Part shown: positions 15,879 through 44,354 of the stretch, piece by piece
Layout of the letters: each line of letters starts with the position of its first letter
Position numbering within the stretch: the first letter of the stretch is position 1
From: Chloroflexota bacterium
Lineage (GTDB): Bacteria; Chloroflexota; Limnocylindria; Limnocylindrales; CSP1-4
Reading direction: 5' to 3'
NCBI GenBank assembly: GCA_016191395.1
Contig: JACPOS010000030.1
Coordinates: 4,235 to 68,234, forward strand
Length of the DNA: 64,000 nucleotides
The notes under the pieces: generated by a model
Told to the model about the DNA's origin: nothing
What the model saw: only the letters and a program-made list of their open reading frames with translations
Database searches by the model: none
Translations under genes and position numbers: made by a program

Positions 15879-17852
15879 CTACCAATGACCGCCCGCGGAA
15901 TGGCCGCCGCCACCTCCGCCACCGAAGCCCCCGAAGCTGCCGCCAGAGCTGTGGCCGCCGCCCCAGCCACCGCCACTGCCGCCGAAGAGCCCGCCGCCGC
16001 GCGGCGCGGATGACCCGGGGCTGCCCCACGAGGAGCCGCCCCAGCCGGCGCCGCGACCACCGCCGCTGAGAATTCCGCCGATGATGCCGCCCAGGATCGC
16101 GCCGGCGAAGTCGCCGCCGCCACTTGCCGCGGACCCGCGGCCAGTCCGGTCCCATTGCGTGAAGTCGAGGGTCGCGAGCGAGTAGGCCTCGCCGGCGAGC
16201 TTGTCCGCTCGCTGCGCGTCGGCCATCGCCTGCTTCGGGTCCGTGGCGCGCTCGGCCTCCGCGACGCCGAGCATGCGTTCCGCCTCGGCGAGGCGCGTGC
16301 GTGCCCGCCGGCCGACGCCGCCGCGGCGGGTCGCGACGAAGTCGCTCGCGCGGTCCATCTCGGCGCGAGCTGCGGCTATGGACGCCTCCAGGGCAGCGGC
16401 GAATCTCGCTGACTGCTCCGCATCAGCGCGGACCGCCGCGAGCAGCTCGCCGGCGAGTCGCTGGGCGGTCGCCGCGCTCCTGGCTGCGCCGATCGGCTCG
16501 GCTGGCCTCGCGGCTGCGGCAGCCCTCGCGGACCGCAGCGCGGCCCTGGCGGCCTCGACGTCTGCGGCGTGGGAGGGCATGCCGTCGGGTCCATCCCTCG
16601 GCGTGGCGGCGAGCGCGGCATCAAGGTCGGCCTCGGCGGCGTCCAGCTGGGCGCCGAGGCCGGCCTCGGTCTCGCGGATCGTCCGCGCGGCGACGTCGAT
16701 GGCGTCGAGCAGTCGCGCTGCGCCGGCGATGCCCTGCTGGGCGGTGACGATCTCGTGGGCGACGCCCGTGCCAGTCGCTGTCACCGCGGCAGTGCCGCGA
16801 TCGATGGCGGCACGCGCGCCCGCGATGCCCTTGGTCGCCTCGGCAACGTTGCCCTTCACGGCCGCCCACGCGGGCTCGGCGTAGGCGGCGCTCAGCTGAT
16901 CCAGCGTGGCCGTGGCCGCCGGGAGACGTGCCGCGAGGGCGTCCACCTGCGCGGGGAGCGACGCGAGGACCGCCGGCGCCTGCCGCTCGAGGTTGCGCAG
17001 CTCCTCGATCCGCGCCGTCTGGGCGTCGAGGGCGGCCGCGGCGCGCCCGAGCCGCTCGAGGATGTCGTTCAGCATCGCCTCCCGCGTCGGTGCGTCCTCC
17101 GGCTGGTCGTCGTCGAGGCGCTGGCGGATCTCGAACGCCCCACCGAGCTCGGTCTTCGCCTGCGCGACAGCTGCCCTGAACGGAGCCGCCTCGTCAGCCT
17201 CGAACTGTGCCTCGACGAAGCCGGCCTCCTGGTCGGATGAGCGAATCCGATCGTCGATCGCGATGAGCTGCGCGTTCGCTGCGCGAGCGAGCTTGCCGGT
17301 CCGGCGGTCGCGCTCCTCCGTCTCGCGCCACGACGAGACCCGGGAGGCGAGCCACACGAGGAGGATCGCGAGCCCGACGCCGAGGAGCACGATGCCGACG
17401 AGCCCGATGAGCACCCCGTCGACCGACTCCATGATGCCTCCGCTCGGCGGTGGCGTGACGCCGCCGCCTGGTGGTCCGGTCTCGCCGATACCCGGGTTGG
17501 GTTGCGTCGTGGAGGCCGCTGCGCCGAGGGCTCGGGCTGCCTCGATCACGGCGATGTCGAAGGTGCCCGTGCGAAGCGCGGGCTCCAGCGTGTCCGAGAT
17601 GACCCGGTTGAGCTCGTCGTTGGTGATGGCGAGCGAATCCGACACCCAGATTGCGTCGGTCCGGTCATCGACCGCGACGAGGAGGAGCACGTCGTCGCCG
17701 CCGAGCGAATTGATCCGCGCCGTCTCGTCGACGAATTCGGTGGAGGTCAACGCACCAGTCGAGCCGACGAACAGGACGAACACCTGGACACGCTGCTTGG
17801 CGAGCAGATCGTCGAGGGACGCCTTGATGGCGTCGGTGGAACTCGCGAGCAC
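15879..17852 (-). CDS. TPM-domain (YgcG-like) membrane protein with a Gly-rich C-terminal tail
   Basis: TPM domain start ITDQTGVLASSTDAIKASLDDL...VFVLFVGS. Central TM helix VLIGLVGIVLLGVGLAILLVWLA. Long coiled-coil region. C-terminal GGGWGGGHSSGGSFGGFGGGGGGGH. The annotated start is GTG at 17852. An in-frame signal-peptide-like extension lies upstream (see findings). Confidence 0.8.
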   Translation of the reverse strand: MLASSTDAIKASLDDLLAKQRVQVFVLFVGSTGALTSTEFVDETARINSLGGDDVLLLVAVDDRTDAIWVSDSLAITNDELNRVISDTLEPALRTGTFDIAVIEAARALGAAASTTQPNPGIGETGPPGGGVTPPPSGGIMESVDGVLIGLVGIVLLGVGLAILLVWLASRVSSWRETEERDRRTGKLARAANAQLIAIDDRIRSSDQEAGFVEAQFEADEAAPFRAAVAQAKTELGGAFEIRQRLDDDQPEDAPTREAMLNDILERLGRAAAALDAQTARIEELRNLERQAPAVLASLPAQVDALAARLPAATATLDQLSAAYAEPAWAAVKGNVAEATKGIAGARAAIDRGTAAVTATGTGVAHEIVTAQQGIAGAARLLDAIDVAARTIRETEAGLGAQLDAAEADLDAALAATPRDGPDGMPSHAADVEAARAALRSARAAAAARPAEPIGAARSAATAQRLAGELLAAVRADAEQSARFAAALEASIAAARAEMDRASDFVATRRGGVGRRARTRLAEAERMLGVAEAERATDPKQAMADAQRADKLAGEAYSLATLDFTQWDRTGRGSAASGGGDFAGAILGGIIGGILSGGGRGAGWGGSSWGSPGSSAPRGGGLFGGSGGGWGGGHSSGGSFGGFGGGGGGGHSAGGHW

Positions 17853-18098: not shown

Positions 18099-19442
18099 TC
18101 AGACGGAGCGAAGGCCTCGCGGCGGCCAGGTCCAGTCGACCGGCAGGTGGGCGGCCGCAAGCGCGCGCCGGCGGCCTGCCTCGCCCGCGCCGAGAATCAC
18201 GATTCGATCCACCTGGGTGGCGCGCCCAGCCTCCGCGCCCCACAGCCTGGTCATCTTGCGGTGGGCGTGGACGTCGTCGGCCGCGATCCCGGCGAGGCGG
18301 AACCCTGCCGGCGCCGCGGCCGCCTCCCACACCCGCTCTGCCAGGTCGTGGCCGTCGGTCACGTCCCGGCCGCGGTCCGTGGTGACGTCGCCGATCACGA
18401 GCACCACGATGCCGTCATCGGTCATCGCCGGCCGCAGGTCGGCCAGGACCGTCTTCATGAAGTCGAGGTACGGCGCGCGCCGGTGCGCGTCATCGAGCGA
18501 CGCGTCGATGGCCCGCGAGTCGAAGCCGAGGAACCACGTCCGAAGCCAGTTGTAGTACCCGTACTTGACGACGCGCAGGTACGGCGGCGACGTCACCACC
18601 AGCCGCGCGCGGTCCGGCAGGCCTCGCCCGCGGAGCGCCTGCGCGGCGCGCGTCCCGGCGTCGCGCGCGTCGCCGAGCAGGGCAAGGCCGGCGGCGCGGG
18701 GCAGGGGATCGCGGTAGAGCCGCGTCAGCTTGGCGTCCAGGCCATCGAACGCGTCGCGCTGCGGTGATTGGAATTCCGTCCGGGCGGCAAAGTCGCGGAC
18801 GTAGCGCGGGGCCATGCTGAACGTGTTGGGCATGAGCGTTGACAGGTAGGACGGGCTCTTCCCGTGGAGGATGCCCACGGTCGCGGCGGCGAGGAATCGA
18901 TCCACCGGGACGCGGAGGTCCAGCGCGTCCCGCAGGAACAGCAGCTGCGCGAAGGTCCGCGGGTGGAACGCGAGGATGACCTCGTCCGGAACGGGCTCGG
19001 GGCCGCCGGTCGCCGGTGACTCGCGGATCGCGTCGGCGAGGTCCCGCCACCGGTTGCCGGCCGATGCCCAGGCAAGCCGGAGTGCCGTCGCACGCGTCCG
19101 GGCCTGTGCGGCGGTCGGCGCGTCCACCTTGGCGGCGGTCAGCAGGTGCGCAAACGGGTTGAGGTCGTTGCCGACGCCGATCCGACCCTCCGCGGATGCC
19201 TGGAGGGGCGCGGTACCCCGGCCTGAGAAGGGATCCAGGACGACGTCACCGGGGCGGCTGTAGCGGGCGATGAACGCGTGCGTGAGTGCGGCCGGGAAGC
19301 TCGCGAGATACGAGCACATCGGGTGGAGCGAGTGGCCCCATAGCCGGGGCTGCGCCTTCCACTCCGGCTCCAGGGCAAGGCGCGGGATGCCGAGGCCAAG
19401 CTCGAGCTGAAGGGTGCTGCCGCTGGTTGGGCCCGCGGTCAT
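18099..19442 (-). CDS. DNA methyltransferase, beta-class N6-adenine/N4-cytosine (DNA_methylase_N-4/N-6 family), apparently orphan
   Basis: AdoMet motif I VLDPFSGRGTAP precedes the catalytic motif IV VVTSPPYL. This motif order is typical of beta-class amino-MTases. Start taken at internal Met MTAGPTSG (19442). No adjacent endonuclease-like gene. Confidence 0.8.
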   Translation of the reverse strand: MTAGPTSGSTLQLELGLGIPRLALEPEWKAQPRLWGHSLHPMCSYLASFPAALTHAFIARYSRPGDVVLDPFSGRGTAPLQASAEGRIGVGNDLNPFAHLLTAAKVDAPTAAQARTRATALRLAWASAGNRWRDLADAIRESPATGGPEPVPDEVILAFHPRTFAQLLFLRDALDLRVPVDRFLAAATVGILHGKSPSYLSTLMPNTFSMAPRYVRDFAARTEFQSPQRDAFDGLDAKLTRLYRDPLPRAAGLALLGDARDAGTRAAQALRGRGLPDRARLVVTSPPYLRVVKYGYYNWLRTWFLGFDSRAIDASLDDAHRRAPYLDFMKTVLADLRPAMTDDGIVVLVIGDVTTDRGRDVTDGHDLAERVWEAAAAPAGFRLAGIAADDVHAHRKMTRLWGAEAGRATQVDRIVILGAGEAGRRRALAAAHLPVDWTWPPRGLRSV

Positions 19443-19549
19443 CGAGCGATCTGCACTCCGATCGGGGCCCGTTCGGGCCACCGGGCGGCGGAGCATAGCA
19501 CCAGCGGTTCGTGGCTCCGGGCGCCCCGGGGAGGCCGGCCGGTACTGGG

Positions 19550-20935
19550 CTAGGGCTGGATGAAGATGAAGTTCTGGAGGTCCAGGCCGCCGATCTGGCG
19601 GTCATAGATGCTGTCCAGGAAGATCGTGCCGCCGCCGGCGTCCGGTGGCGGGGTGGGCTGTGGTGCGAGGATCGCCCCGTCGTAGAGCTGCCGGAACAGC
19701 GCCTCCGCGTCTGCCTTGGCGATCACGAAGGTGAAGCGTGCCCCGCTCGCGTCCTGGACCAGCGCGTACGACGGCGCGCCGACGAGCAGCGGCGCAAGAT
19801 CGATGGAGACCTGGGTCAGGTCGCCCTTCGTTCCGTCAGCCGCGCTGTACGGGTAGTGCCAGGTCTTCCAGGTGGCCGTGATGGGCAGGGTGCCGCTCGG
19901 CGTGCTCGTGAACGAGATCAGGCGAGCGCCCTGGGCCTTCCCCTGCAGGCCGGCCAGCATCGTGATGATCCGATCCTTCACCCCGTCGCGACACGGATCC
20001 TTGGGCGGGCAGACGAAGCTCATCATCGGTGTCTCGAACCCGTTCTTGTCGCCCGCGGCCACGAGCAGATCCGGTGGCCCGAGCTTCGGCGTGGGGGTGG
20101 GTCCGGCGGTGGGCGGCGGACCGGTGGGCGCGACCGTTGGTGCCAGGGTGACGACCGGGGTCGCCGTGGCGACCGCCGCGGCCGTTGGGGTCGGCTTCGC
20201 ATCGAGGCCAAGCATGCGCGGCAGGACCAGGACCGCAGCGATGGCCGCGATGAGCAGGCCACCGGCCGGCTTGATCCAGCCGGGGATGATCGCGCGCTGC
20301 TCGAGGGTAGCGGGGACCTGGAAGGAGCCCGCCGTCGGCTCGTCGATCTGGACGGCGAATGGAACGCGCTTCGGCGAGCCCAGCCAGAACGTCGTCTTCG
20401 GCTTGACCCGGGTGCGAATCGTCGCCGAGCCGCCCGGGCGAAGACCGGCGCGGTCCGGGATGACCTCGAAGTTGAGCAGGCGGTCCGGATCGCTCGCCTT
20501 GACCGAGACCTCCGCGACCGAGTTGCCGACGTTCTGGATCGTGACGTCGTGCGAGCCCGAGCGGCTGCCGCGCGACGTCTGCGGCACGATCTCCGAGGCC
20601 AGCTGGACGAACGGCGCGACGACGATGTGCCCTTCCTCGACGGTGGACGCGCTCGCGTCCGATGCGGCACGGACGGCGATGCCGAAGGGGTAGGTGTCGG
20701 CCGCCGGATCCGGCGCTCGATGCGGAGCGAAGGTGACCCGAGCCTCACCCTCCTTGTCCGGGAAGAGGCGCAACGACGGGGGGTCGACGGTCGCCCACGG
20801 CGCGGTGGGCCCGACCACGGTGATGTCGAACTGGTCGACGATCGTGCCGCGGTTCCTGACCCGGACGACGAGGGAGGTGGCGGCGCCGGCTTCGACCTGG
20901 AGGTTGGCCGGGTCAATGGTCGCGAGGACGCTCAT
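19550..20935 (-). CDS. membrane protein with two N-terminal Ig/CARDB-like beta-sandwich domains, one TM helix, a Pro-rich linker and a C-terminal globular domain
   Basis: 461 aa. Repeated beta-sandwich segments (LVVRVRNRGTIVDQFDITVVG...; HDVTIQNVGNSVAEVSVKAS...). TM helix GGLLIAAIAAVLVLP. Linker PTPTAAAVATATPVVTLAPTVAPTGPPPTAGPTPTP. Function unknown. Confidence 0.6.
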   Translation of the reverse strand: MSVLATIDPANLQVEAGAATSLVVRVRNRGTIVDQFDITVVGPTAPWATVDPPSLRLFPDKEGEARVTFAPHRAPDPAADTYPFGIAVRAASDASASTVEEGHIVVAPFVQLASEIVPQTSRGSRSGSHDVTIQNVGNSVAEVSVKASDPDRLLNFEVIPDRAGLRPGGSATIRTRVKPKTTFWLGSPKRVPFAVQIDEPTAGSFQVPATLEQRAIIPGWIKPAGGLLIAAIAAVLVLPRMLGLDAKPTPTAAAVATATPVVTLAPTVAPTGPPPTAGPTPTPKLGPPDLLVAAGDKNGFETPMMSFVCPPKDPCRDGVKDRIITMLAGLQGKAQGARLISFTSTPSGTLPITATWKTWHYPYSAADGTKGDLTQVSIDLAPLLVGAPSYALVQDASGARFTFVIAKADAEALFRQLYDGAILAPQPTPPPDAGGGTIFLDSIYDRQIGGLDLQNFIFIQP

Positions 20936-21017
20936 GGCCCGAGTCTACACCGGGGTTTCGGCGGACTACACTGCCCCGGTCGGCGGCTCGTCATGAGACA
21001 AAGGGGATCCCCAGGTC

Positions 21018-22460
21018 GTGATCAAATGCGGCGTTTGCGGCTCGGAGAACGAGGCAGCGGCCCTGTTCTGCGGCACGTGCGGGAGCCCGCTTGCGCCCGC
21101 CGAGGCGACGGCCATCGCCGACGACGCCACCAGGACGGTCGAAGCCACGACTCCCGAGCCGGACGAGGCCGTGGTGCCCGGCAAGGGTGGCGCCCGGCGC
21201 GACCTCGGGACCGGTGGCGAGAGCACCACCGTGCCCGATGCCACGACGGTCACGCCGACGCCGGAGCCAATCGCCGACGTGGAGACCGCGCCCGGCGGCC
21301 CGACCATCACGTGCGGCGTGTGCGGCACGATCAACGACGCGTCGCGGACCTACTGCCGCAAGTGCGCGAGCGAGCTCAGGCCCGCGCCGCCCCCGCCCCC
21401 GCCGCCGCCGCCTCCGCCACCTGCCAGGCGGATCTCGCCCCTCGCCCTGGGCCTCGGCGCCGGTGCGATCGTCGTGGCGATCGCCCTCGTTGCCGTCCTC
21501 GTGCTTGGTGGGGGCAAGCCCGGCGCGACGCTCGCTCCAACGGCCCAGGCGACCACGCCGGCGCCCACGGGTACACAGGCCGCCGTGGTGCCAACGACCG
21601 GGCCGACCGTCGCCCCGACGGCGACCGCCAGGACCTTCACCGAAGGCGCCCTGTCCGGCCAGATCGCGTTCTCTCGCTGCGTGGCCGGCACCAAGTGCGC
21701 CATCTTCCTGCGCCCGGCCGACTCCTCCGCGAAGCCGCGCCGAATCATCGGCGTGAACAACGCCGACGCTCTTGACCCGGCGATCTCTCCGGATGGCAAG
21801 ACGATCGTGTACGTCACCGAGCCCGGACTGGACATCGTGACCATCGCGAGCCGCCAGGTTGTGCAGCACTCCACGGGCGCCGGCGACACGACTCCGGCCT
21901 GGTCGCCGGACGGCACGCAGATCACCTTCGCCGGCCACCGAGATCGAGACAAGAACGGCACCGACCTGGAGATTCGGATCGACGGCCTTGCCGCCTCCAG
22001 CTCGTCGCGGGCACTGACGGTCAACGACGTTGCCGATCACGACCCGGTCTTCACCCCTGACGGCCTGTCCATCATCTTCGTCCAGGGCTCGGGGGACGAG
22101 CGCGAGCTGAAGATGCTCACGATCGCCACCGGCGAGATCAAGGCCCTCACCACGGATGCGTTCGCGGACGAGGACCCGGCCGTCTCGCCCGACGGAACGT
22201 TGCTCGCCTTCGCCAGCAAGCGCGGTGACGGCAGCACGTTCGACCTGTTCCTGATGGACCTCAAGACGCTCCAGATCACCCCGCTGCCGGCGAGGGACGG
22301 GAACGACAACGATCCGGCGTGGTCGCCCGGCGGTCGCTACATCGTCTTCTCCGGCGGCCCCGACGGCGCCAAGGACCTGTTCATCCTGGACCTGTCAACG
22401 ATGAAGACGTCGACGTTCACCAAGGACGCAGGGAGCGACATCCAACCGTCCTGGCGCTGA
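21018..22460 (+). CDS. double zinc-ribbon / TM / TolB-like (PD40) beta-propeller protein
   Basis: N-terminus MIKCGVCGSENEAAALFCGTCG and second ribbon ITCGVCGTINDASRTYCRKCA. 12-Pro run. TM helix LALGLGAGAIVVAIALVAVLVLGG. At least 5 PD40-type repeats (DPAISPDGKTIVYV, TPAWSPDGTQITFA, DPVFTPDGLSIIFV, DPAVSPDGTLLAFAS, DPAWSPGGRYIVFSG). Confidence 0.75.
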   Translation: MIKCGVCGSENEAAALFCGTCGSPLAPAEATAIADDATRTVEATTPEPDEAVVPGKGGARRDLGTGGESTTVPDATTVTPTPEPIADVETAPGGPTITCGVCGTINDASRTYCRKCASELRPAPPPPPPPPPPPPARRISPLALGLGAGAIVVAIALVAVLVLGGGKPGATLAPTAQATTPAPTGTQAAVVPTTGPTVAPTATARTFTEGALSGQIAFSRCVAGTKCAIFLRPADSSAKPRRIIGVNNADALDPAISPDGKTIVYVTEPGLDIVTIASRQVVQHSTGAGDTTPAWSPDGTQITFAGHRDRDKNGTDLEIRIDGLAASSSSRALTVNDVADHDPVFTPDGLSIIFVQGSGDERELKMLTIATGEIKALTTDAFADEDPAVSPDGTLLAFASKRGDGSTFDLFLMDLKTLQITPLPARDGNDNDPAWSPGGRYIVFSGGPDGAKDLFILDLSTMKTSTFTKDAGSDIQPSWR

Positions 22461-22566
22461 TCAGAGCCGTCATCGCCTGCCGAAAAAGGCTGGACCCGGC
22501 AGGAACCACAATGGCACCATACGAAACCCTTCCCATCGACCCATCGACACTCCAGGGGGCCTGACG

Positions 22567-25500
22567 TTGCCAGAGGAGCGGCACGATGCTCGGGCCCGAC
22601 GCCCGTCGCCTGCGGGTGCCCAGCCGCCCTCGGTGGTCCCGGCGAAGGTTCGCGTCCCCACGGCCGAGGCACTCCCGCGGGAGCGCCTGGAAGGACAGCT
22701 CGCCGCAGCGGTGGAGCGGCATCGGCTGACCCTCGTCATCGCTCCCGCCGGCGCCGGCAAGACGACGCTCCTGGCCCGCTTCGCCGCGTCGACGCGCCTG
22801 CCCGTGGCCTGGTACCGGGCGGAGACCTGGGACGACGATCCGTCGCGCATGCTCCGGCATCTGGAGGCGGCGCTCGGCGCGGCGCTGCCGGGACTGCCAT
22901 CGGGCTGGTCCGACGTCGAGGACGCGGCCCGGTCGTTGGAGCGGTGGACCGGCGGGCCCGCCGCGCTCGTCATCGACGACCTTCACGCCCTCGAGGGCAC
23001 GGCGGCCGAGGCGGTCCTGAGCCGGCTGGTGGACTACGCGCCGCCATGGCTCCGGATCCTCGCAGCGTCGCGTGTCAGGCCCGACTTCAACCTGCCGCGC
23101 CTCCGCGTGTCGGGTGACCTCCTGCAGATCGAGGGCGACGACCTCCGCTTCCGGTCATGGGAGGTGGAGCGGCTGTTCCGGGACTTCTACCGCGATCCCG
23201 TGCCCCCGAGCGAGCTGGCCGTCCTCGCCCGACGCACGGAGGGCTGGGCCGCGGGCCTGCAGCTGTTCCACCTCGCCACGCGGGGCAAGTCTGCCGACGA
23301 GCGACGCCGGATCCTGGGCGGGGTGGGCTCCAGCACGCGACTGCTGCGCGACTACCTGGCCCGCAACGTTCTCTCCGAGCTGCCCGACGACCTCCGCCGA
23401 TTCCTCGTGGACACGTGCGTCCTCGTTCGCCTCACGGGTGACCTCTGCGACGAGCTGCTCGACCGGCGGGGGAGCGCGCTCCTGCTCGAGGAGCTTGCCC
23501 GCCGGCAGCTGTTCACGGTGGTCGTCGACGAGAGCGAGGGCTCGTATCGGTACCACGAGGTGCTCCGCTCGCACCTCGACCGGATGCTGGTAGAGGAGGT
23601 CGGCGAGGCGGAGGCGCGCCGGCGCCACCAGCGCGCCGCGAGCCTCCTGGAGCGCAGCGGCGCGCTGTCCGAGGCGCTCGTCGGGTACTGCCGGGCGGAG
23701 GACTGGCCGGCGGTGTCCAGCCTTGTCGGCAATCGGGGCGAGCAGGTCGCCGGCGGAGCCGGCCTGCGCCTGGAGCTGCTGCCCCCGGCGCTCGTCCGCG
23801 ACAGCCCATGGCTCGCCCTCGCCTCGGCTCGCCGAGCCCGGGCCGAAGGCCGCTGGGGGGCCGCCCTGGAGTCGTACGCCCGCGCCGAGGCCGCGTTTGG
23901 GGCCTCGACGGCCGGCTCCACCTGCCGCGGTGAGCGCCTCGCCCTGTCCGCCTGGCTTGACCCGGTTGCGATCCCGCCCGCGGACTGGACCGGGGTCCTT
24001 CGCGCAGGCCTCGTCCGCGAGCCGCTGGCCGCGGCGCGCGATTCGCGCCTGGACCCGGAGCACCGCGACCTGGTGCGAGGGCTTCTCCTCCTCGCCGCCG
24101 GCGAGGTTGCCGAGGCGCGTCGCGCGCTGACGGAGGCCAGCCAGCTCGAGGAGCTGGACCCGTCGCTTGGCGCGGCCGCGGCGGTTGGTGCGGCGGTTGC
24201 CGCCCTCCTCGCGGGGGAGCCCGGGGCGGTTCGCCAGCTCGCCGACGCGATCGACATCGCCGAGCGCACGGGCCTGCCATGGCTCGCTCGAATGGGCCGC
24301 CTGGCGGCGAGCATCGGCAACGCGGAGCTGGACCGGAGCTCGTCGGACGAGCCCGTTCACCCCGATGCGATCAGTGCGGAGACGGACCCGTGGGGCGCGC
24401 TGCTCGCCGCCCTGGTCGAGGCGTGGGTCGCCGAGTCGACGGCCACCGAGGTCGTGGGCGAGATTCGAATCGCGGCCGCGGAGCGTGCCGCAGCCCTCGC
24501 GCGCCGGCTCGGCGCGGGCGTCCTCGAGGCGCTGGCCCGCGGCCTGGCCGCGTACGGGATGGCCGAGACGAATGCGCCGGAGGTACGCGAGACCGCGCTC
24601 GCGGTCGAGAGCCTGGCGCGTGCAACCGGCACGTCCGCGCCGCGCCTCCTCGCCTACGCCGCGCTCGCCGACGCGAGCCCGGCTCGCAGGGAGGAGTACG
24701 AGCTGCTCGCGGACAACGTCCGCCGCGAGACCGGCCTTCGCCTGCCAGTCCGGCATGACGCCGCGCCAACTCCCGGCGCGGTCGAGCCGCAAAGCGGCTC
24801 CGTGTTGCAGGACAGCCGGGTCGTGCTGCCGCCCCTGGCGCGCGGGCACGGCATCGACATCCGAGCATTCGGTGGCTTCGCGGTGGAGGTCGAAGGCCGC
24901 GCCGTCCCACTGGACGGGGTCAAGCCGCGCGCCCGCGCCGTCCTTCGATTCCTCGCCGTACGCCCGGGTGTGGCGATCCACCGGGAGGTGATCCAGGAAG
25001 CCCTCTGGCCGGACGTGGACTCGCCCACGGGCGCCCGAAGCCTCCACGTCGCCGTATCGGCGCTGCGTGGGCTCTTCGCGGAGGCCCTCGCCGCGGACGC
25101 GACCCGGCTCATTGCCCGCGAGGGTGACGCGTACCGGCTCGCGGTGGATCCGACCTCCGTCGACGTGGGGCGGTTCGAGCGCGAGATGGCCCGAGCGCGG
25201 GCCTCGCGGAACGGCGCCGGCAAGGTCGGCACCGGAACGGCGGAGTTCGCGGCCGCGCTCGCCCTGTACCGGGGCGACCTCCTGCCCCAGGACGGACCGG
25301 CCGAGTGGGCCGTGGAGCGTCGGGAGCACTTCCGCCGCGAGGCCGTCGAGGCCGCGACGATCGTGGCCGAGGATGCCCTCGCATCGGGCGATCTCGAGGA
25401 GGCGATCCGCGTCTGCCGCCGCGGGCTTGAGCTGGACCGGTTCCACGATCCACTGTGGCGCGTGCTCATCGCGGCTCGCGACCAGGCTGGGGACGCCGGT

Positions 25501-25584
25501 GCAGCGAGTCGCGATCGCCGGGAGTACGCCTCCATCCTGGAGGGCTTGGGCCTCAGCCCGGAGCTGGCCGCGAACTCGGCCTGA
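22567..25584 (+). CDS. STAND-type NTPase transcriptional regulator with C-terminal SARP (OmpR-type winged helix plus BTAD) DNA-binding module
   Basis: Walker A LVIAPAGAGKTTLLARF preceded by a MalT-like N-terminal pattern. Long helical/TPR-like middle. C-terminal OmpR-type wHTH (IDIRAFGGFAVEVEGRAVPLDGVKPRARAVLRFLAVRPGVAIHREVIQEALWPD) followed by BTAD (ALALYRGDLLPQD...RVLIAA). TTG start at 22567; the true start may be ~20 codons downstream. Confidence 0.8.
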   Translation: MPEERHDARARRPSPAGAQPPSVVPAKVRVPTAEALPRERLEGQLAAAVERHRLTLVIAPAGAGKTTLLARFAASTRLPVAWYRAETWDDDPSRMLRHLEAALGAALPGLPSGWSDVEDAARSLERWTGGPAALVIDDLHALEGTAAEAVLSRLVDYAPPWLRILAASRVRPDFNLPRLRVSGDLLQIEGDDLRFRSWEVERLFRDFYRDPVPPSELAVLARRTEGWAAGLQLFHLATRGKSADERRRILGGVGSSTRLLRDYLARNVLSELPDDLRRFLVDTCVLVRLTGDLCDELLDRRGSALLLEELARRQLFTVVVDESEGSYRYHEVLRSHLDRMLVEEVGEAEARRRHQRAASLLERSGALSEALVGYCRAEDWPAVSSLVGNRGEQVAGGAGLRLELLPPALVRDSPWLALASARRARAEGRWGAALESYARAEAAFGASTAGSTCRGERLALSAWLDPVAIPPADWTGVLRAGLVREPLAAARDSRLDPEHRDLVRGLLLLAAGEVAEARRALTEASQLEELDPSLGAAAAVGAAVAALLAGEPGAVRQLADAIDIAERTGLPWLARMGRLAASIGNAELDRSSSDEPVHPDAISAETDPWGALLAALVEAWVAESTATEVVGEIRIAAAERAAALARRLGAGVLEALARGLAAYGMAETNAPEVRETALAVESLARATGTSAPRLLAYAALADASPARREEYELLADNVRRETGLRLPVRHDAAPTPGAVEPQSGSVLQDSRVVLPPLARGHGIDIRAFGGFAVEVEGRAVPLDGVKPRARAVLRFLAVRPGVAIHREVIQEALWPDVDSPTGARSLHVAVSALRGLFAEALAADATRLIAREGDAYRLAVDPTSVDVGRFEREMARARASRNGAGKVGTGTAEFAAALALYRGDLLPQDGPAEWAVERREHFRREAVEAATIVAEDALASGDLEEAIRVCRRGLELDRFHDPLWRVLIAARDQAGDAGAASRDRREYASILEGLGLSPELAANSA

Positions 25585-25602
25585 GCGTTCGCGTCGGCCG
25601 CG

Positions 25603-27651
25603 TCAGGGCCGGCGCCACCATGGATTCTTCGGGTCCGGCTCCGACGGCGGCTCGATCAGCGCCGTGCCGCACTTCATGCAGAACCGCCGGGCGGGATTGT
25701 TCGGCGTCGAGCAGTTGGGGCAGATCCGGGGCGGGATGACCTCGCCCTCCGGCATCTTCTGCCCGCACTTCATGCAGAAGCGCCGCTCGGCGTGGTTGGG
25801 CGTCCCGCAGTTGGCGCAGATCCGCATCAGCTCTGGCTTGGGCTCGGGGACCGGCTCGGGCTGCGGTGTGCCGGGAATCACGGTGCCGTCCGTCCTGTCG
25901 TCGACGGTGGCGGGCTCCGCCGTCGCATCGGGCTGCGCGGGGGTTGCAGCGACGCCCCGACCAGCCGCTCGCAGCGCTGCCCGATAGGCGTCGCGCGCGG
26001 CCTTCGCGGCCGCCGCGCGCTCCGCTTCATGGGCGGCCCGCCGCGCCTCGATGCGGGCCTGGCGCATTGACTCCTCGTCCGCGGCGGCCTTCTCCGCTGC
26101 GAGCCGATCCGCTTCCGCCTGCCTGGCCGCCGCCTGCTCGTCCGCCGCCGCCTTCTCGGCGGCCAGGCGATCCGCCTCCGCCTTCTCGGCAGCACGTTGT
26201 TCGGTTGCTGCCGCCTCAGCCGCAGCCTCCTCGCGTTCCGCCTTCTCCGCGGCGGCCTGCACTGCCGCCGCCTCCTCCTCGGCCGCCTTCTCCGCCGCGA
26301 TTCGGTCCGCCTCGGCGTGTTCTGCGGCGGCCTTCTCTGCGGCCACTCGTTCTGCTTCAGCGGCCTCGATGGCGGCAAGCTCGTTGGCGATCCGATCGGC
26401 TTCCGCCTTCTCGGCCGCGGCCTTCTCTACCGCTGCCTTCTCTGCCGCTGCTCGGTCGGCCTCGGCCTTTTCGGCTGCCGCCTTCTCCGCGGCGACTCGT
26501 TCCGCCTCGGCTCGTGCATCGGCGGCTTCCTTGGCTGCCTGTTCCGCCGCGGCCTTCTCCGCCGCTGCCTGCTTTGCCGCGGCCTGGTCCGCGGCGGCCT
26601 TCTCCGCCGCGGCTTGTGCTGCGGCTGCCGCGGCCGCGCGCTCGGCTGCCTCCTCTTCCTCGGCCGCCCGCTTCGCGGCCGCCGCTGCCTCCGCTGCGGC
26701 CCGGTCCGCGGCGGCCTTCTCGGCCGCTGCCTTTTCTTCAGCCTCGGCCATGTCCGCGGCGGCTTTCTCCGCGGCGGCTTTCTCGGCAGCGACCCGGTCT
26801 GCTTCGGCACGCTCGCGAGCGGTCTGTTCCGCTGCCTCGCGCTCCGCCCTGGCCTTCTCGGCAGCAACCCGATCCGCAACGGCCTTCTCCGCTGCCTTCC
26901 GTTCGGCCTTCGCGGCCTCTGCGTCGCCCTTCGCCGCCGCGGCCTTCTCGGCCGCGATATGCGCGGCTTGCTCATCGGCAAGGCGCGCCGCCTCGGCTTG
27001 TTCGGCGGCGACCCGAGCGGCCCTCTCGGCGGCCGCCTGCTCCTTCGCCACGCGCTCTGCTTCGGCCTTGTCAGCGGCCGCCTTCTCCGCTGCGATGCGC
27101 TCCGCCTCGGCCTTCGCCGCCGCAGCGGCCTTGTCCGCCGCGACCTTCTCTGCCGCCATGCGGTCGGCCTCGGCCTTTGCGGCGGCCGCCGCTTCCGCGG
27201 CGAGGCGCTCAGCCTCTGCCTTCTCAGCCTCTGCCTTCGCCGCTGCCTCGCGATCTGCGGCGGCCTTCTCCGCTGCGATGCGGTCGGCCTCGGCCTGATC
27301 GGCGGCAGCCTGTTCGGCGGTAGCCTTCGCCGCGGCGAGGCGCTCAGCCTCTGCCTTCTCAGCCTCTGCCTTCGCCGCGGCCGCCTTCTCCGCCGCGATC
27401 CGATCTGCCTCGGCCTTCTCGGCCGCCCTCCGGTCCGCCTCCGCCTGTTCCGAGGCGGCCTTCTCCGCGGCCGCCTTGTCTGCGGCCGCCTTGGCGACCG
27501 CTGCGGCGGCATCGGCCTTCGCTGCCTCGGCCTTCGCCTTCTCGGCGGCCTCGTCGTACGGCTCGCCGGTGTCGGGCAGGAAGTTGCCGCATCCGCCGCA
27601 GAAGACGACAGACGCTTCATTGATCGTGCCGCAGACCTTGCAGCGGATCAC
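25603..27651 (-). CDS. zinc-ribbon-capped Ala/Glu/Lys/Arg-rich helical repeat protein (N-terminal zinc ribbon, ~530-aa low-complexity helix, two C-terminal zinc ribbons)
   Basis: GTG start at 27651 with a GGGAGGGA RBS 5 nt upstream. N-terminus MIRCKVCGTINEASVVFCGGCG. Approximately residues 35–565 are degenerate AEKAAAEKAEADRIAAEKAAA-type repeats. C-terminal ribbons ICANCGTPNHAERRFCMKCG and ICPNCSTPNNPARRFCMKCG. The underlying DNA is tandemly repetitive (25.96–27.56 kb). Lies 76 nt downstream of the gpI-like gene. Confidence 0.75.
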   Translation of the reverse strand: MIRCKVCGTINEASVVFCGGCGNFLPDTGEPYDEAAEKAKAEAAKADAAAAVAKAAADKAAAEKAASEQAEADRRAAEKAEADRIAAEKAAAAKAEAEKAEAERLAAAKATAEQAAADQAEADRIAAEKAAADREAAAKAEAEKAEAERLAAEAAAAAKAEADRMAAEKVAADKAAAAAKAEAERIAAEKAAADKAEAERVAKEQAAAERAARVAAEQAEAARLADEQAAHIAAEKAAAAKGDAEAAKAERKAAEKAVADRVAAEKARAEREAAEQTARERAEADRVAAEKAAAEKAAADMAEAEEKAAAEKAAADRAAAEAAAAAKRAAEEEEAAERAAAAAAAQAAAEKAAADQAAAKQAAAEKAAAEQAAKEAADARAEAERVAAEKAAAEKAEADRAAAEKAAVEKAAAEKAEADRIANELAAIEAAEAERVAAEKAAAEHAEADRIAAEKAAEEEAAAVQAAAEKAEREEAAAEAAATEQRAAEKAEADRLAAEKAAADEQAAARQAEADRLAAEKAAADEESMRQARIEARRAAHEAERAAAAKAARDAYRAALRAAGRGVAATPAQPDATAEPATVDDRTDGTVIPGTPQPEPVPEPKPELMRICANCGTPNHAERRFCMKCGQKMPEGEVIPPRICPNCSTPNNPARRFCMKCGTALIEPPSEPDPKNPWWRRP

Positions 27652-27727: not shown

Positions 27728-28477
27728 TCAGGTCGCCGGCGCCTCAGGCTCCGCCGGCGCCTCAGGCTCCGCCGGTTTCTCTGCCGCCGGGGTCTTCTTC
27801 GCCGCCTCGTCCGGCGCCGGTGTTGCGGCCTTGGCCTTGCGACTGGCTCGCTGCTCCGTGCCCACGATCTCCACGCGATGGACGACGTGCGCGGGCTTCG
27901 AGGCATGGACCATCGCCTCGAGCTTCGTGCGATCGATCGAATCCGGGTCGTCCACGGTCACGCGGACCACGACGACCGGTTCCGGGCTGCCGGGCAGCTT
28001 GCCCTCCGGCTTCGGGGACCAGCTGCTCGCCCCGTTCTCGACGATCTCGACGATTCCGCCGGTGTGGATCTGGACGTGGTCACGCAGGCCCGCCGCGGTC
28101 CCGCGCCGGCGGTACAGCTCCGCCGCCTGGCCCACGAATGCACGTCGCCGATCCTCCGGCCAGCCGTCATCGACCGACGCCGCGACCCACTCGCCGAGCC
28201 AGGCCAGGAAGTCCTCCGGCGTCGTGTCGGCGTCGAAGTACGCGGGAAGGTTGTCCAGGGTGGCGAGGACCGGTGCGAGCACCGTGTCGAGCGCCGAGAT
28301 GAAGCGCGTGCCGAACGGCTCCCGCGCCGTCCGCCGCCGCTCGTCGATCCAGGCGTCGCGATAGACGCCCGGCAGGCTCTCGGCGAGCGGGTGGGGGTTG
28401 ATGAGCTCGAACTCGGACCCGGTGGCGAGGGCGGTCTCGCCGTCCGTCCGTGCGAGTGCCACCACGGCGGCTCGCAT
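27728..28477 (-). CDS. phage tail protein I-like baseplate protein (P2 gpI / eCIS Cis12-like)
   Basis: ATG overlaps the baseplate-J stop (ATGA). The segment FLAWLGEWVAASVDDGWPEDRRRAFVGQAAELYRRRGTAAGLRDHV aligns to the P2 gpI motif LPWLAWAFSVDRWDEKWPE..KRAVIRDAYFIHCHKGTIGAIRRVV. Low-complexity Pro/Glu/Ala C-terminal tail. Confidence 0.8.
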   Translation of the reverse strand: MRAAVVALARTDGETALATGSEFELINPHPLAESLPGVYRDAWIDERRRTAREPFGTRFISALDTVLAPVLATLDNLPAYFDADTTPEDFLAWLGEWVAASVDDGWPEDRRRAFVGQAAELYRRRGTAAGLRDHVQIHTGGIVEIVENGASSWSPKPEGKLPGSPEPVVVVRVTVDDPDSIDRTKLEAMVHASKPAHVVHRVEIVGTEQRASRKAKAATPAPDEAAKKTPAAEKPAEPEAPAEPEAPAT

Positions 28478-30459
28478 CAGGCGACCGACGCCGCGGCGCC
28501 CGGGACGGTGACCACGTGCCCAACGCTGAAGACGAGCACGTTCGGCTTCAGCTCGAGTCGCGGCGTCGCCTCGCGGCCCTCGCACGTCTCGGCGTTCGTG
28601 CCGAACAGGTTCACCGAGTCCACCACCTCCGACCCGGGCACACGCTGCAGCACGGAGTAGATCTCGCCGATGGTGACCGGCCGGCCGAACGGCCAGCCCT
28701 TCCCGTCCGGGCCCCCGGTGATCGGATGCAGGTATTCGTACAGGGCACGCTCGGCGTCGGCCTTCAGTCGGTTCGGGTTCGCGCCGGCAGCCGGCTTGAC
28801 GGTCGCCTCGACGGTGACGCCCCGATACCCCGGCGGCTCCACGCTGATGCGCGTCCCGATGACCCGGCATTCCTCGAGCCGCTGGGTGATGGCCTCGAGG
28901 AGGGTTGGATCGGGGACCAGCTGGTCGAAGCGGATGCGGCCGTCGATGCTCGGCAGCGAGGGCACCACGAGCAGGCGAACGGCGCCTGCGAGCGCACCGT
29001 CGCCCGCCGCGATCGCGCGGACGCGGCCCACGTTGGGGGCGGCTTCGCGCGCGAGGTGCTCGAAGTCCTCCGTCGTGACCGCCCGGCCGCGCGTGCGCAG
29101 CCGGATCGGCCCGCGGACCTTCGCGTTCTCGATGTCCTCGCCGTCGACGCCGCCCCGCGCGTCGCGCCGGTTCTCCACCCGGGAGACGAACGGGTTCGCC
29201 GACTTCACGACCTTGATGGAGCCCGTCGCCGCGTTGCCGCGCTGGCCGCCGCCGGTGTGGTACTCCAGCATCCGGATGTAGCGGTCCTTCTCGGGCGTCG
29301 CGCCGTACTGGCGAAGCGAGCCGTCCGGCTGCCGGATCGCGGGGCCAAACCGGACCTCGCCGGTCGCGCCGTCGATCACGAAGTGGCGGTCGGTGGGGCC
29401 GCTGGCCGCGAAGTCCTCCACCTGGTCCCATGTCTGCCAGGTCGGGCTGCCGTCGGCGTCCGAGCCCGTGGACACGGCGAGCGTGGCCGCCTCGTCCGTG
29501 GACAGGACGGGCTTGCGCCGGAGCTCGAAGCGCTGGCCCGGCACACCCTCGGAGACGCCGAGGTCCTCGTCGCGAACCACCGAGGCGTTGACCGCCGCGA
29601 CCGTGCCGCCGACGGTGATGGAGCTCGCCGCGTTGACCGTGGGCGAGGCCTCGTACCCGGACATGCCCGGGATGGGCTCCACGACCCGCGCCCGGACCCA
29701 GGCGGCGTGCCTGGTGCCGATGGTGTGCGCGGCATGGCCGCGGGGGACGTGGATCACGACGTCGCCGTCCCGGTTGAGACCGCCGGTGGAATCAGAGTCC
29801 TGCTCGCACGGGATCCAGTCCTCGCCGTTCCACGCCTCCCAGAGAAGTGGCGGGTGGTCCGGGTTGACGCCGACGCCCTCGATGTCGCACTTGAAGCGGA
29901 GCTGGATCGCGTTCGACGGCACCGCCTGCGACAGGCCGATGAGCAGCGCATCGCCGAGGGCGGGCTTCTCCTGGAAGCAGTACGCATCCTTGCCCAGCTC
30001 CACGAGCGGCAGGAGGTCGCGGTAGGCCGATTTGCCCTTCGCCATCGAGCCGAGCTCGATCAGCGTCGCCGGGATGATCGGGAGCTCCTCGGTGGTCGCG
30101 AAGATGATGGCCTCGTCCGTCTCGGTGCGGACCGTCGCTACCTGCGTCGCCGGCGGGATGCGGACGACGTCCGGCTGCGGCCCGGCGAGCCAGAACGTGA
30201 CGTCCGTCCGTGCCGCGGTCGGCGGGAACAGGGTCACGCCGATCAGCTCCAGGAACTTGATGTAGTTCCGGTCCGGGACGCGGTTCAGCCGGTAGATCAG
30301 CTGGTCCGTCATCCACGCGAACGTCTCGATGAGCGTCACGCCCGGGTCCGACACGTTGTGGTCGGTCCACTCCGGGCAGCGCTGCTGGACGAGCCGCTTG
30401 GCCTCGTCGACGAGGTCCTGGAAGCGACGATCGTCAAGGTTGGGGACGGGTAGCGCCAT
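28477..30459 (-). CDS. baseplate J-like protein (gp6/gpJ family; eCIS Cis11/Afp11-like)
   Basis: 660 aa. N-terminus MALPVPNLDDRRFQDLVDEAKRLVQQRCPEWTDHNVSDPGVTLIETFAWMTDQLIYRLNRVPDRNYIKFLELIGV is the canonical baseplate-J/gp47 family start. Confidence 0.9.
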   Translation of the reverse strand: MALPVPNLDDRRFQDLVDEAKRLVQQRCPEWTDHNVSDPGVTLIETFAWMTDQLIYRLNRVPDRNYIKFLELIGVTLFPPTAARTDVTFWLAGPQPDVVRIPPATQVATVRTETDEAIIFATTEELPIIPATLIELGSMAKGKSAYRDLLPLVELGKDAYCFQEKPALGDALLIGLSQAVPSNAIQLRFKCDIEGVGVNPDHPPLLWEAWNGEDWIPCEQDSDSTGGLNRDGDVVIHVPRGHAAHTIGTRHAAWVRARVVEPIPGMSGYEASPTVNAASSITVGGTVAAVNASVVRDEDLGVSEGVPGQRFELRRKPVLSTDEAATLAVSTGSDADGSPTWQTWDQVEDFAASGPTDRHFVIDGATGEVRFGPAIRQPDGSLRQYGATPEKDRYIRMLEYHTGGGQRGNAATGSIKVVKSANPFVSRVENRRDARGGVDGEDIENAKVRGPIRLRTRGRAVTTEDFEHLAREAAPNVGRVRAIAAGDGALAGAVRLLVVPSLPSIDGRIRFDQLVPDPTLLEAITQRLEECRVIGTRISVEPPGYRGVTVEATVKPAAGANPNRLKADAERALYEYLHPITGGPDGKGWPFGRPVTIGEIYSVLQRVPGSEVVDSVNLFGTNAETCEGREATPRLELKPNVLVFSVGHVVTVPGAAASVA

Positions 30460-30469
30460 CGTCAGCTCC

Positions 30470-30862
30470 TCACTCGCCGGGAATCACGTAGAACGGGAAG
30501 ACCAGGTTGTGGCGGTCGTTGGTTCGCTTCATGCGGTACTGGATGTCGATGTAGAACACGGTCGGGTCCTCCGCCGTGAACAGCACCACGACGTCCCCGA
30601 CGTCGATCCGGTGCTCCCAGCGGGTGAGCGCGCTCTTGACCTCGGCGGAGATCGCGGCGGCGGTCGTGCTGTCCGCAGGGCTGAACACGAAGTCGTGGAT
30701 CCGGCAGCCGAACTCCGGGCGCATGGGGCGCTCGCCCGGCGAGGTGGACACGATCACCCGGATCGCCTCCTGGATCTCGCGCTCGCTCGACACCAGGGCG
30801 ATGCCACCGTTGGCATCCGTCCGGATCGGGAAGGCCCAGCCGCGGCCGATGAAGTCCGTCAT
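30470..30862 (-). CDS. GPW/gp25 family baseplate wedge protein (eCIS Cis9-like)
   Basis: 130 aa. N-terminal signature FIGRGWAFPIR, the gp25 'GRGWxFP' motif. Start overlaps the VgrG stop. Confidence 0.9.
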   Translation of the reverse strand: MTDFIGRGWAFPIRTDANGGIALVSSEREIQEAIRVIVSTSPGERPMRPEFGCRIHDFVFSPADSTTAAAISAEVKSALTRWEHRIDVGDVVVLFTAEDPTVFYIDIQYRMKRTNDRHNLVFPFYVIPGE

Positions 30863-32622: not shown

Positions 32623-32634
32623 GCCGCCCGCGCC

Positions 32635-33432
32635 TCAGGACCGCTGCGCCGCGTCGGCGGCGCTCGGGATGAGGAGGAACTGCCCGGGCTTGATGCGCAG
32701 CGGATCGTCGATGCCGTTCGCCTCGGCGATGGCGCGCCAGTAGCCGCTGCGGCCGAGCTCGACGAAGGCGATCATCGCGATCGTCTCGCCCTCGACCACG
32801 CTGTGCACCCGGCGCATGTCCGTGGCATGCGAGGTCGGGTTGGTGCCCGGCGGCGGGTCGATCTTGCCGTCCAGCGTCAGGTCGACCTTGGCCTGGATCG
32901 GTGTCCCGTTCTTGCTGAACACCGTGTAGTTGACGTTCACGGACGTGATCACGCCCTTGAAGTTCTTGAGCTGGTCGTTGCCCCATTCGAACTTCACGAA
33001 CGGCGGGCCGACCTTCTTCTTCGGATCGGCGTACTGCCACGACAGGAGCTTCGTGATCTTGGGCGTGACGTCGCCCTTCATCGACGCGAAGTCGTCGAAG
33101 AACAGCTGCATCTGGACGGTCATGCCGGACGTGCCCGTGTACTCGATGTGGCCGCCCGGATCGAACACGCTCTGGCTGTGGGTGATGTTCGCGGTCTGCG
33201 AGATCCGGTATTCCGTGGGGTTGAACATGAACGTGATCTCGGAGTCCTTGTCCTCCGCACCCAGGCCGGGGATCGGCAGCGCTGACGCGACCGCCGAGCC
33301 CACGGCGGACAGGGCCCCACCGAGGCCGCCGCCGTCGTCCCCACCGGCGGGCGCGTCGAGGCGGATCAGCTTGGCCTTGCCGTGCAGCAAGATCCCGGCG
33401 ACGGCTCCGACGGCTCCGACGGCGAGGTCCAT
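32635..33432 (-). CDS. LysM-domain baseplate protein (P2 gpX / eCIS Cis7-like)
   Basis: 265 aa. C-terminal LysM (ETIAMIAFVELGRSGYWRAIAEANGIDDPLRIKPGQFLLIP). N-terminal ITFMFNPTEYRISQ domain. Positioned between the second tube-like protein and VgrG. Confidence 0.75.
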   Translation of the reverse strand: MDLAVGAVGAVAGILLHGKAKLIRLDAPAGGDDGGGLGGALSAVGSAVASALPIPGLGAEDKDSEITFMFNPTEYRISQTANITHSQSVFDPGGHIEYTGTSGMTVQMQLFFDDFASMKGDVTPKITKLLSWQYADPKKKVGPPFVKFEWGNDQLKNFKGVITSVNVNYTVFSKNGTPIQAKVDLTLDGKIDPPPGTNPTSHATDMRRVHSVVEGETIAMIAFVELGRSGYWRAIAEANGIDDPLRIKPGQFLLIPSAADAAQRS

Positions 33433-33441
33433 CTCCGTCCC

Positions 33442-33936: not shown

Positions 33937-33945
33937 CAGGTCTCC

Positions 33946-44257: not shown

Positions 44258-44354
44258 TCGATGCCAGGGCTCGCCTTCGCGGGCCCGGATCCAGACGCTC
44301 ACGCCGTGGATTCTACGGCGGGCACGATTTCGACCCGATGCGCGAGACTTCGGT

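Follow-up and report, generated by a model that had tools for sequence, protein, structure and literature searches.

Previous reports have established that a membrane factor, CisA, is required for the firing of the cytoplasmic contractile injection system (CIS) of Streptomyces coelicolor (eLife 2025, PMC12237407). The cytosolic part of this protein was termed 'largely unstructured' in that paper, in which zinc is never mentioned, and modelling with AlphaFold-Multimer pointed to Cis11 as its partner (PMC12237407). In the case of Sco4242 (Nat Commun 2023, PMC10020575), a Cys-rich putative Zn domain was recognized before the transmembrane (TM) helix, and attachment to the baseplate was suggested as its function (Vladimirov 2023). 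The way in which cytoplasmic CIS reach the membrane and are fired is still an open question; CisA is essential in Streptomyces, where stress-induced cell death also depends on it, and its contact with the particle has not yet been demonstrated. In addition, a 2026 study reported no close cisA homologue in Roseiflexus, a member of the Chloroflexota. Here we describe the accessory end (positions 19550-27651) of a CIS locus in a 64-kb stretch of DNA, referred to below as the window, from a Limnocylindria bacterium (Chloroflexota). Four proteins are encoded there, in the order X (minus strand), A (plus), B (plus) and C (minus), after which the CIS genes follow on the minus strand. Judging from its position and sequence, C is very probably a homologue of CisA/Sco4242 in which the TM helix and the outer domain have been lost.

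Six-frame translation of the window gives 807 open reading frames (ORFs), among which the real frames were picked out by codon-position GC, GC content being about 72% throughout. The source is not an actinomycete; close homologues of the window proteins carry the names Chloroflexota or Candidatus Limnocylindria. For the comparison with other loci, Cis11 homologues from an exhaustive search were aligned and one genome per species was scanned, giving 80 loci of about 22 kb each with Cis11 proteins 52-89% identical. These come from Limnocylindria and other metagenome-assembled genomes (MAGs) labelled as Chloroflexota, from MAGs labelled as Dormibacterota, and from many Actinomycetota, with about 30 Streptomyces. 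The cisA position is defined with the help of two baseplate wedge genes, which in the window are cis12 (Tail_P2_I; 27728-28480, minus strand) and cis11 (Baseplate_J; 28477-30459, minus strand); counts at this position use the 61 loci with at least 2 kb of sequence after cis12. The identity of the window Cis11 to its Streptomyces counterparts is 52-55%.

The gene directly after cis12 has the layout of CisA/Sco4242 in 56 of these 61 loci, namely a first zinc ribbon (ZnR1), a low-complexity linker, a second ribbon (ZnR2), a PWWRR motif, a basic stretch, one TM helix and a C-terminal outer domain. ZnR1 is found at residues 4-20 with the consensus MIVCxxCGxxNxxxDxFCGSCGxFLEW, the linker has 53-620 aa and is Pro-rich in most relatives, and ZnR2 has the consensus DLxCxxCGxxNxPxRxFCRRCGxxL. 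A [PS]W[WY][RK][RK] motif follows ZnR2 at a distance of 12-16 residues in 50 of 52 family members, and [VI]xPG precedes ZnR2 in 28 of 55 CisA-like proteins (1.2 expected from shuffled sequences), many of these being related Streptomyces sequences. The C-terminal domains, of 150-175 aa, are mutually homologous from Streptomyces to Limnocylindria and match F5/8-type-C and APC10-like (discoidin-like) models; these matches agree with the published 'sugar-binding' domain of Sco4242, and position, size, TM placement and this C-terminal domain all fit Sco4242/CisA. Some members of the family deserve separate mention. The cisA-like gene is split into at least two ORFs within the repetitive linker in loci L004 (14627-17103) and L088 (2403-5206), both from long-read or MAG assemblies, which is probably due to frameshifts or assembly errors in low-complexity sequence, and cisA-like genes with such linkers are likely under-called in databases. 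In an actinomycetotal MAG (L028:7908-10901, plus strand), the gene downstream of cis12 encodes a 997-aa fusion of ZnR1, linker, PapD-like domains similar to those of X, and a TM helix, followed by a C-terminal domain of 469 aa unrelated to that of CisA; this is a link of the Rosetta-stone type between the ribbon module and a putative effector family.

C (25603-27651, minus strand) is a soluble protein of 682 aa with one N-terminal and two C-terminal ribbons. Its start at 27651 lies 76 bp past the cis12 stop, on the same strand and with a GGGAGGG ribosome-binding site; no terminator was found in the gap between the two genes, and C is probably co-transcribed with the baseplate genes. On this strand, ZnR1 (27589-27642) is followed by an Ala/Glu/Lys/Arg helical spacer of 533 residues (about 25972-27555), a VIPG motif (25870-25881), two copies of ZnR2 (a, 25765-25818; b, 25669-25722) and PWWRR (25609-25623), shortly before the stop codon. 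A ZnR2+PWWRR profile built from other genomes aligns to residues 643-681 of C (48.9 bits, independent E-value 1.4e-14), with PWWRR at an offset of 15 from ZnR2, in register with the family, and the protein ends one residue later. C thus shares with CisA/Sco4242 the place after cis12, the N-terminal ribbon, the long low-complexity linker and the Cys-rich ribbon, which in CisA precedes the TM helix, with PWWRR 15 residues further on. In contrast, it has neither the TM helix nor the discoidin-like outer domain of about 160 aa (150-170 aa and periplasmic in the CisA/Sco4242 family), ZnR2 is doubled, and the linker is helical instead of Pro-rich. No TM helix was detected in C, where no 19-residue window reaches the hydrophobicity threshold, and a profile of the CisA C-terminal domain found no match in the six-frame translation of the window or in loci L001-L008, while the controls L010 and L012 gave E-values of 1e-40 and 2e-47. 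The idea that the anchor domain is encoded elsewhere in the 64 kb was rejected on this basis. In all C orthologues seen, WW[RK][RK]x forms the C-terminal end, the B gene has its stop codon right beside it, and there is no TM helix, so that the truncation is real and old. In C, the Trp of the FLEW tail that follows ZnR1 in the family is lost, the tail being replaced by FLPD.

The spacer of C shows a 5/15-residue period and contains 49% Ala, 18% Glu, no Pro, two Gly and 5.6% large hydrophobic residues, with 77 i/i+4 pairs of opposite charge. From this composition it would form a long single charged helix rather than a classical coiled coil, about 80 nm in length if fully helical. It is always long (610-725 aa among intact orthologues). 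Domain II of TolA is also a long helix rich in Ala, Glu and Lys, a likeness to the spacer that is compositional only.

The pattern CxxC-x10-CxxC occurs in real coding frames of the window in five copies, all of them in A and C (regular-expression search of the six frames). Ribbon profiles were built from cisA-position genes of other genomes, and among the 807 ORFs they match only C (E-values 1e-20 to 5e-26) and A (3e-12 to 1e-15), the next-best ORF having E-values of 0.07-0.9. Profiles from the other genomes, with the clade of the window left out, sort the individual ribbons into two types: the first ribbons score higher with ZnR1 than with ZnR2 (A1, 35.2 vs 25.1 bits; C1, 43.0 vs 16.3 bits) and the remaining ones higher with ZnR2 than with ZnR1 (A2, 37.0 vs 26.4 bits; C2, 38.7 vs 31.4 bits; C3, 44.9 vs 30.0 bits). 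Because the profiles split them in this way, the pairing of A1 with C1 and of A2 with C2 and C3, already pointed out in a first-pass annotation of this DNA, reflects two old ribbon types. The features of A, B and C described in that annotation, including the 18-bp gap between the last two genes, were all confirmed at the coordinates given. Within the 22-kb loci, ribbons are almost confined to the cisA-position gene and A. When the C-terminal 132 aa of C were used as a database query, just 10 matches were obtained, mostly fragments of orthologues, which provided neither a wider family nor a set of generic ribbons suitable as background. The presence of the ribbons is beyond chance according to both the window profiles and the cross-genome pattern, the decisive evidence being that from other genomes. 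As to the question raised at the outset, whether their likeness reflects a generic consensus, each of the five ribbons is also matched by generic Pfam models (Zn_Ribbon_1, DZR, DUF7577), so that sequence likeness taken by itself could be of this generic kind. Ribbon likeness alone is weak evidence; what carries weight is the order and position of the ribbons, together with the motifs flanking them and the genomic context.

A (21018-22460, plus strand) is a bitopic protein of 480 aa with a cytoplasmic N-terminus. It carries a ZnR1-type ribbon (residues 4-21; 21027-21080), a VVPG motif (21171-21182), a ZnR2-type ribbon (residues 99-116; 21312-21365) followed by poly-Pro, one TM helix (residues 144-162; 21447-21503) and an extracytoplasmic TolB-type propeller with PD40 repeats (about 21657-22457), all on the plus strand; the topology with the N-terminus inside and the propeller outside had been anticipated and was borne out by this analysis. 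Alignment of its N-terminal profile with that of short-linker CisA-like proteins using hhalign is colinear, ZnR1 with ZnR1, ZnR2 with ZnR2 and TM with TM, with a probability of 99.8, and [VI]xPG precedes ZnR2 in 46 of 52 A proteins. With the order ZnR1-ZnR2-TM and the bitopic N-in topology of CisA, A probably carries the two-ribbon cytoplasmic module of that protein. There are 88 full-length members of the A family (ZnR-ZnR-TM-PD40), all Limnocylindria-type, further matches being PD40 proteins with other N-termini. The outer domain was modelled with AlphaFold2 (AF2) and compared with Foldseek, which identified it as TolB-type (4r40, 2hqs and 1crz; E-value about 1e-20; root-mean-square deviation (rmsd) 2.4-2.6 A). 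The superposition gave an rmsd of 2.5 A over 278 columns, with a TM-score (target) of 0.59-0.61 and 22-24% identity, and the PD40 score is 99.7 bits. The similarity to TolB resides in the six-bladed PD40 propeller; only positions 173-417 of the TolB profile are covered, however, and the score with TIGR02800 (107) stays below the equivalog cut-off of 343. Unlike TolB, which is a soluble periplasmic protein, A is anchored in the membrane with cytoplasmic ribbons and lacks the N-terminal alpha/beta domain that binds TolA, and no evidence of a Tol-Pal system was found here. PD40 proteins were also seen at other CIS loci. In Amycolatopsis (L058:12520-17576, plus strand), a 1359-aa protein with an N-terminal TM helix and a PD40 region resembling the propeller of A directly follows a short-linker CisA-like gene (326 aa), and a PD40 match lies near the CIS of a Streptomyces sp. 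(L069:11808-12383, minus strand), so PD40 propellers may recur at CIS loci outside Limnocylindria.

The distribution of A and that of the truncated form of C are related. Truncated C is always accompanied by A, and the anchorless form is restricted to the clade having A; in loci without A, the cisA-like gene always keeps its TM helix and outer domain. In this truncated-C clade, the near-invariant Trp after ZnR1 is absent in 77 of 77 A proteins, as it is in C, while outgroup A proteins (L009, L010 and L012) keep the FLEW tail. A is found together with a full-length CisA-like protein in L009, L010, L012 and L088. The situation recalls the thylakoid-anchored CIS of Anabaena, in that a TM protein associated with the baseplate links an intracellular CIS to a membrane of the host (PMC10020575); the membrane anchoring of the Anabaena system by TM segments of baseplate-attached proteins is taken here as cited in that paper. 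The likeness is conceptual, the proteins being different and the putative anchor A being here separate from the baseplate-adjacent C.

B (22567-25584, plus strand; TTG start) is a MalT-type STAND ATPase of 1005 aa, with a NOD (residues 24-448) containing the Walker A motif GAGKTT (22750-22767, plus strand) and a C-terminal SARP module of winged helix-turn-helix (wHTH) and BTAD (residues 763-998; 24853-25560, plus strand). The NOD matches MalT (PDB 8bob, E-value 3.5e-28, residues 24-387) and the C-terminus EmbR (2fez, E-value 8.7e-12, residues 763-998); BTAD scores 44.7 bits (cut-off 22.1) and Trans_reg_C 23.4 bits, just below its cut-off of 26.2, and WHD_MalT is recorded in B orthologues. As in MalT and LAL STAND regulators, a P-loop NOD is combined with a winged-helix arm or sensor region, but there is no GerE match, the output being SARP and not LuxR, and the NCBIfam MalT score is 176 against an equivalog cut-off of 537. 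B shares with EmbR the module of OmpR-type wHTH and BTAD, and differs from AfsR, ActII-ORF4 and SARP-LAL proteins such as PimR in that SARP is C-terminal in B and N-terminal in those. A possible assignment of B to the Avs-type defence STAND proteins was rejected, as PADLOC gave only a trivial P-loop match.

The B and C genes converge, with the 18-bp gap at 25585-25602. B homologues were found in 29 loci, always on the strand opposite to the CIS operon and beside the cisA-like gene, on which B converges in all 15 Chloroflexota-type loci that extend far enough and in seven of 19 non-Streptomyces actinobacterial loci. In three more actinobacterial loci the match was partial or limited to the SARP region: L085 and L087 have small SARP genes, and L045 encodes a protein of 1203 aa with a SARP region at its C-terminus. 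No full-length B was present in 20 Streptomyces loci. Because its position is kept across phyla, B is likely to be functionally linked to the CIS, and we incline to the view that it regulates the locus. A small stand-alone SARP gene (272-353 aa) takes the place of B in L032, L085 and L087 (about 13800-14580, minus strand), an arrangement that points to repeated loss or gain of the ATPase/sensor part.

X (19550-20935, minus strand), the upstream divergent neighbour of A, is a bitopic protein of 461 aa consisting of two PapD-like beta-sandwiches (residues 1-213), a TM helix (221-241), a Pro/Thr linker that is disordered in the model, and an alpha/beta C-terminal domain (290-445). It matches Cep192_D3 and HYDIN Ig-like in Pfam, and its AF2 model (pLDDT 87.5) matches hydin, CEP192 SPD-2, FimC and CsuC in Foldseek; a protein from a 'Chloroflexi bacterium' MAG shows 100% identity to X. 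The Sco4256-4258 family of CIS membrane effectors has been described as proteins with a PapD/pilus-chaperone-like domain, a TM segment and a variable third domain, and the Sco4256 putative effector family has also been reported in Chloroflexi type IId loci (PMC10020575, PMC10066040). X has the same features (PapD-like N-domain, one TM helix, variable C-terminal domain, type IId locus), but it is encoded at the baseplate end of the cluster and not between the sheath and ATPase genes. Its N-domain alone is kept in actinobacterial CIS loci. Its C-terminal domain was considered as the missing outer domain of CisA and this was rejected, since phmmer found nothing when run against the C-terminal domains of CisA-like proteins.

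X, A and B occur together in all 13 A contexts sampled (the window, L001-L010, L012 and L088), X being the direct neighbour of A in each of them, and CIS genes are there too wherever the contig reaches. Co-conservation of this neighbourhood with the CIS, on which the first-pass annotation had made its proposals depend, is found. The set of three proteins that it recognized, A, B and C, is incomplete, as X belongs to the same conserved block. What lies beyond X differs between loci: the window has a methyltransferase gene there and L088 has PPDK, and a TPM/PspA pair is found in some loci and missing from others, so that the conserved block ends at X.

The intergenic regions contain repeats that are candidate regulator sites as far as their sequence can tell. 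The 82-bp divergent region between X and A has a direct repeat, TCTACA-N16-CTACA (20944-20970, plus strand), which is unique in the window (none expected from shuffles) and in register in eight orthologous loci. In the 185-bp divergent promoter region between the sheath gene and cis16 (38430-38614), an array GGGCA-N7-GGGCA-N17-GGGCA (38531-38568, minus strand) is followed by an inverted repeat GCCCGAG...CTCGGGC and a CCTTGT box, all in register across Limnocylindria-type loci; the array has one match in the window against 0.1 expected, for a pattern chosen post hoc. The array may serve as operator for the regulator of the locus, be it B or a LuxR-type protein encoded at 43035-43682. Finally, the 106-bp gap between A and B holds a conserved block, CTGGACC...TGGCACCATACGAA (22470-22566), just upstream of the TTG start of B, an indication that B has a promoter of its own. 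TGGCAC in this gap was also considered as a sigma-54 element, and this reading was dropped, there being no TTGC at the right spacing.

On these grounds we lean towards an explanation, mechanism included, in which 19550-27651 is the accessory end of a type IId CIS and serves docking, regulation and cargo. The ribbons and the short motifs adjacent to them would dock onto the baseplate wedge, where Cis11 is the modelled partner of CisA, and C would decorate the baseplate as a long soluble arm. A would supply in trans the membrane anchor lost by C and would link docking and firing to envelope state; B, a signal-sensing MalT-type ATPase with SARP output, would activate the locus; and X would be a membrane-active cargo of the Sco4256 type. 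The parts of this explanation differ in strength. Homology, architecture, gene positions and co-conservation across phyla have been shown above, whereas ribbon docking, the action of A on behalf of C, the targets of B and the role of X are inferred. Anchoring of the CIS by A in trans is tentative and on balance somewhat doubtful. The hints that A and C act as a receptor/tether pair, namely that the anchor of C was lost only where A existed and that both lack the Trp after ZnR1, are suggestive. A membrane tether had been among the early proposals, by analogy with Streptomyces anchoring factors; the analogy has turned into homology in the case of C, but the pairing with A is only hinted at. A more specific version, to which we give rather little credence, is that of a split adaptor, in which the two-ribbon module, with VxPG and PWWRR, is a portable unit for docking onto the type IId baseplate, C forms an arm of about 80 nm, A takes over membrane capture with firing gated by its propeller, and the joint loss of Trp reflects co-adaptation to a shared partner. 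Several observations weigh against the favoured explanation. The ribbons are short, and generic Pfam models fare about as well on them; the hhalign score of A is driven by Cys-rich columns and was obtained with a single template; and A, besides having a TolB-type propeller outside, lacks PWWRR (with poly-Pro instead) and the CisA C-terminal domain, and is encoded 6 kb from cis12 on the other strand. As A coexists with a full-length CisA-like protein in four loci, it is not simply a replacement anchor. The losses of the C anchor and of Trp are single-lineage events with little statistical weight, and the A/X/B/C synteny is largely within one class, so that vertical inheritance could explain it. 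In addition, the two candidate repeats are of different sequence, X is a candidate Sco4256-family effector matched by published description and not by sequence, and the putative type IId assignment is based on Cis11 identity and a published tree.

Other explanations were considered. The region could be a dedicated sensing circuit in which A is an envelope sensor whose ribbons signal to B, which in turn switches on the CIS, C being a separate fibre-like protein. Zinc ribbon, TM helix and ectodomain are a common layout of membrane-bound signalling proteins, A and B are adjacent and co-directional with the conserved block in the gap between them, and a MalT-type NOD implies sensing of a ligand or partner. 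We nevertheless consider such a circuit unlikely: B converges on the cisA-like gene in 18 loci without A (11 Chloroflexota-type and seven actinobacterial), which argues against an obligate A-B sensor pair, the ribbons of A are the two CisA types, present in Streptomyces without any B, and the conserved motif in the A-B gap suggests a separate promoter for B. Of the regulatory circuit that had been suggested for this region, the linkage of B to the locus across phyla holds, whereas a sensor pair with A does not fit its distribution. C could also act as a soluble decoy or brake that competes with a membrane-bound adaptor and holds particles off the membrane until removed by a signal; it keeps every cytoplasmic element of the family without the anchor, its probable co-transcription with the baseplate genes would make it stoichiometric with the particles, and the doubled ZnR2 may raise avidity. 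A conserved helical spacer of about 500 residues and a C-terminal PWWRR are not obviously needed for such a role, which we regard as quite improbable. Lastly, generic double-zinc-ribbon proteins and a regulator could lie beside the CIS through vertical synteny without any functional link, as might be argued from the matches of all five ribbons to generic Pfam models and from the extension of Limnocylindria synteny to a methyltransferase and a TPM/PspA pair without evident CIS role. Such a coincidence is hardly credible and is largely refuted by the cross-phylum pattern: both ribbon types, their order and PWWRR are found after cis12 in Streptomyces, other Actinomycetota and Chloroflexota, the place of B is kept across phyla and the block is retained while the flanks beyond X vary, and the ribbon profiles match nothing else in the 64 kb.

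With regard to the remainder of the locus, the CIS core continues at 30470-41466 on both strands. Beyond cis11, the minus strand encodes, in order of increasing coordinates, gp25, VgrG, a LysM-tube protein, a gp19-like tube protein, a 614-aa ORF, a tube protein and the sheath, the true start of which is at about 38429. Divergent from the sheath gene, cis16 (Pvc16_N; 38615-39340) and an AAA ATPase gene (39337-41466) are on the plus strand, followed by the gene for an eCIS_core/DUF4157 protein, also on the plus strand, beyond which lies that of the LuxR-type regulator mentioned above (minus strand). The system, at first labelled an extracellular CIS (eCIS), is, judging from the literature, probably a cytoplasmic type IId CIS instead. 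The 614-aa ORF (33946-35790, minus strand), in a stretch of 78% GC, has no Pfam or NCBIfam match and sits between tube-like genes, where a tape-measure protein would be expected; the CIS cluster of S. coelicolor has been reported to have no tape-measure gene. On the ATPase side, a tRNA gene (45653-45725, plus strand) directly follows an unassigned 622-aa gene (43718-45586, plus strand, no family match) and could mark the edge of an integrated island. An Rfam scan found no RNA element in the accessory region and only two tRNAs elsewhere, and a promoter/terminator scan gave nothing useful at 72% GC. At the other end, an orphan type II N6/N4 DNA methyltransferase gene (18099-19496, minus strand), matching type II methyltransferase models in PADLOC, follows X across this clade, although not in L088. 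Beyond it lie genes for a TPM-domain protein (15879-17852, minus strand) and a PspA/IM30 protein (15097-15810, minus strand), a membrane-stress pair. In L004 the two are joined as a single protein of 998 aa, and L003 and L006 lack them; the presence of a membrane-repair module beside a lysis-inducing CIS may or may not be meaningful.

While CisA, its position and a putative Zn domain are already known, the definition of the family by two ribbons and PWWRR and its extension to Limnocylindria appear to be new, as do an anchorless C with a helical rod, a paralogous ribbon-TM-TolB protein and a conserved STAND-SARP partner. Full-text literature searches found no paper combining 'contractile injection' with 'zinc ribbon' and none on regulators of non-Streptomyces type IId loci; publications joining 'contractile injection' and 'SARP' deal with other topics according to their titles and abstracts. 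The results provide a sequence definition of the CisA family that reaches Candidatus Limnocylindria, comprising two ribbons, VxPG, PWWRR, a TM helix and a discoidin-like domain, and turn the ribbons and motifs into concrete, mutable candidates for baseplate docking. A STAND-SARP activator is also nominated for many non-Streptomyces type IId loci. As a natural variant, the locus has, moreover, a cytoplasmic module that is separated from the anchor and present a second time on a TolB-like sensor, so that the role of each half of CisA becomes testable. If the split adaptor were true, an extracytoplasmic propeller would read the envelope state and gate firing accordingly.

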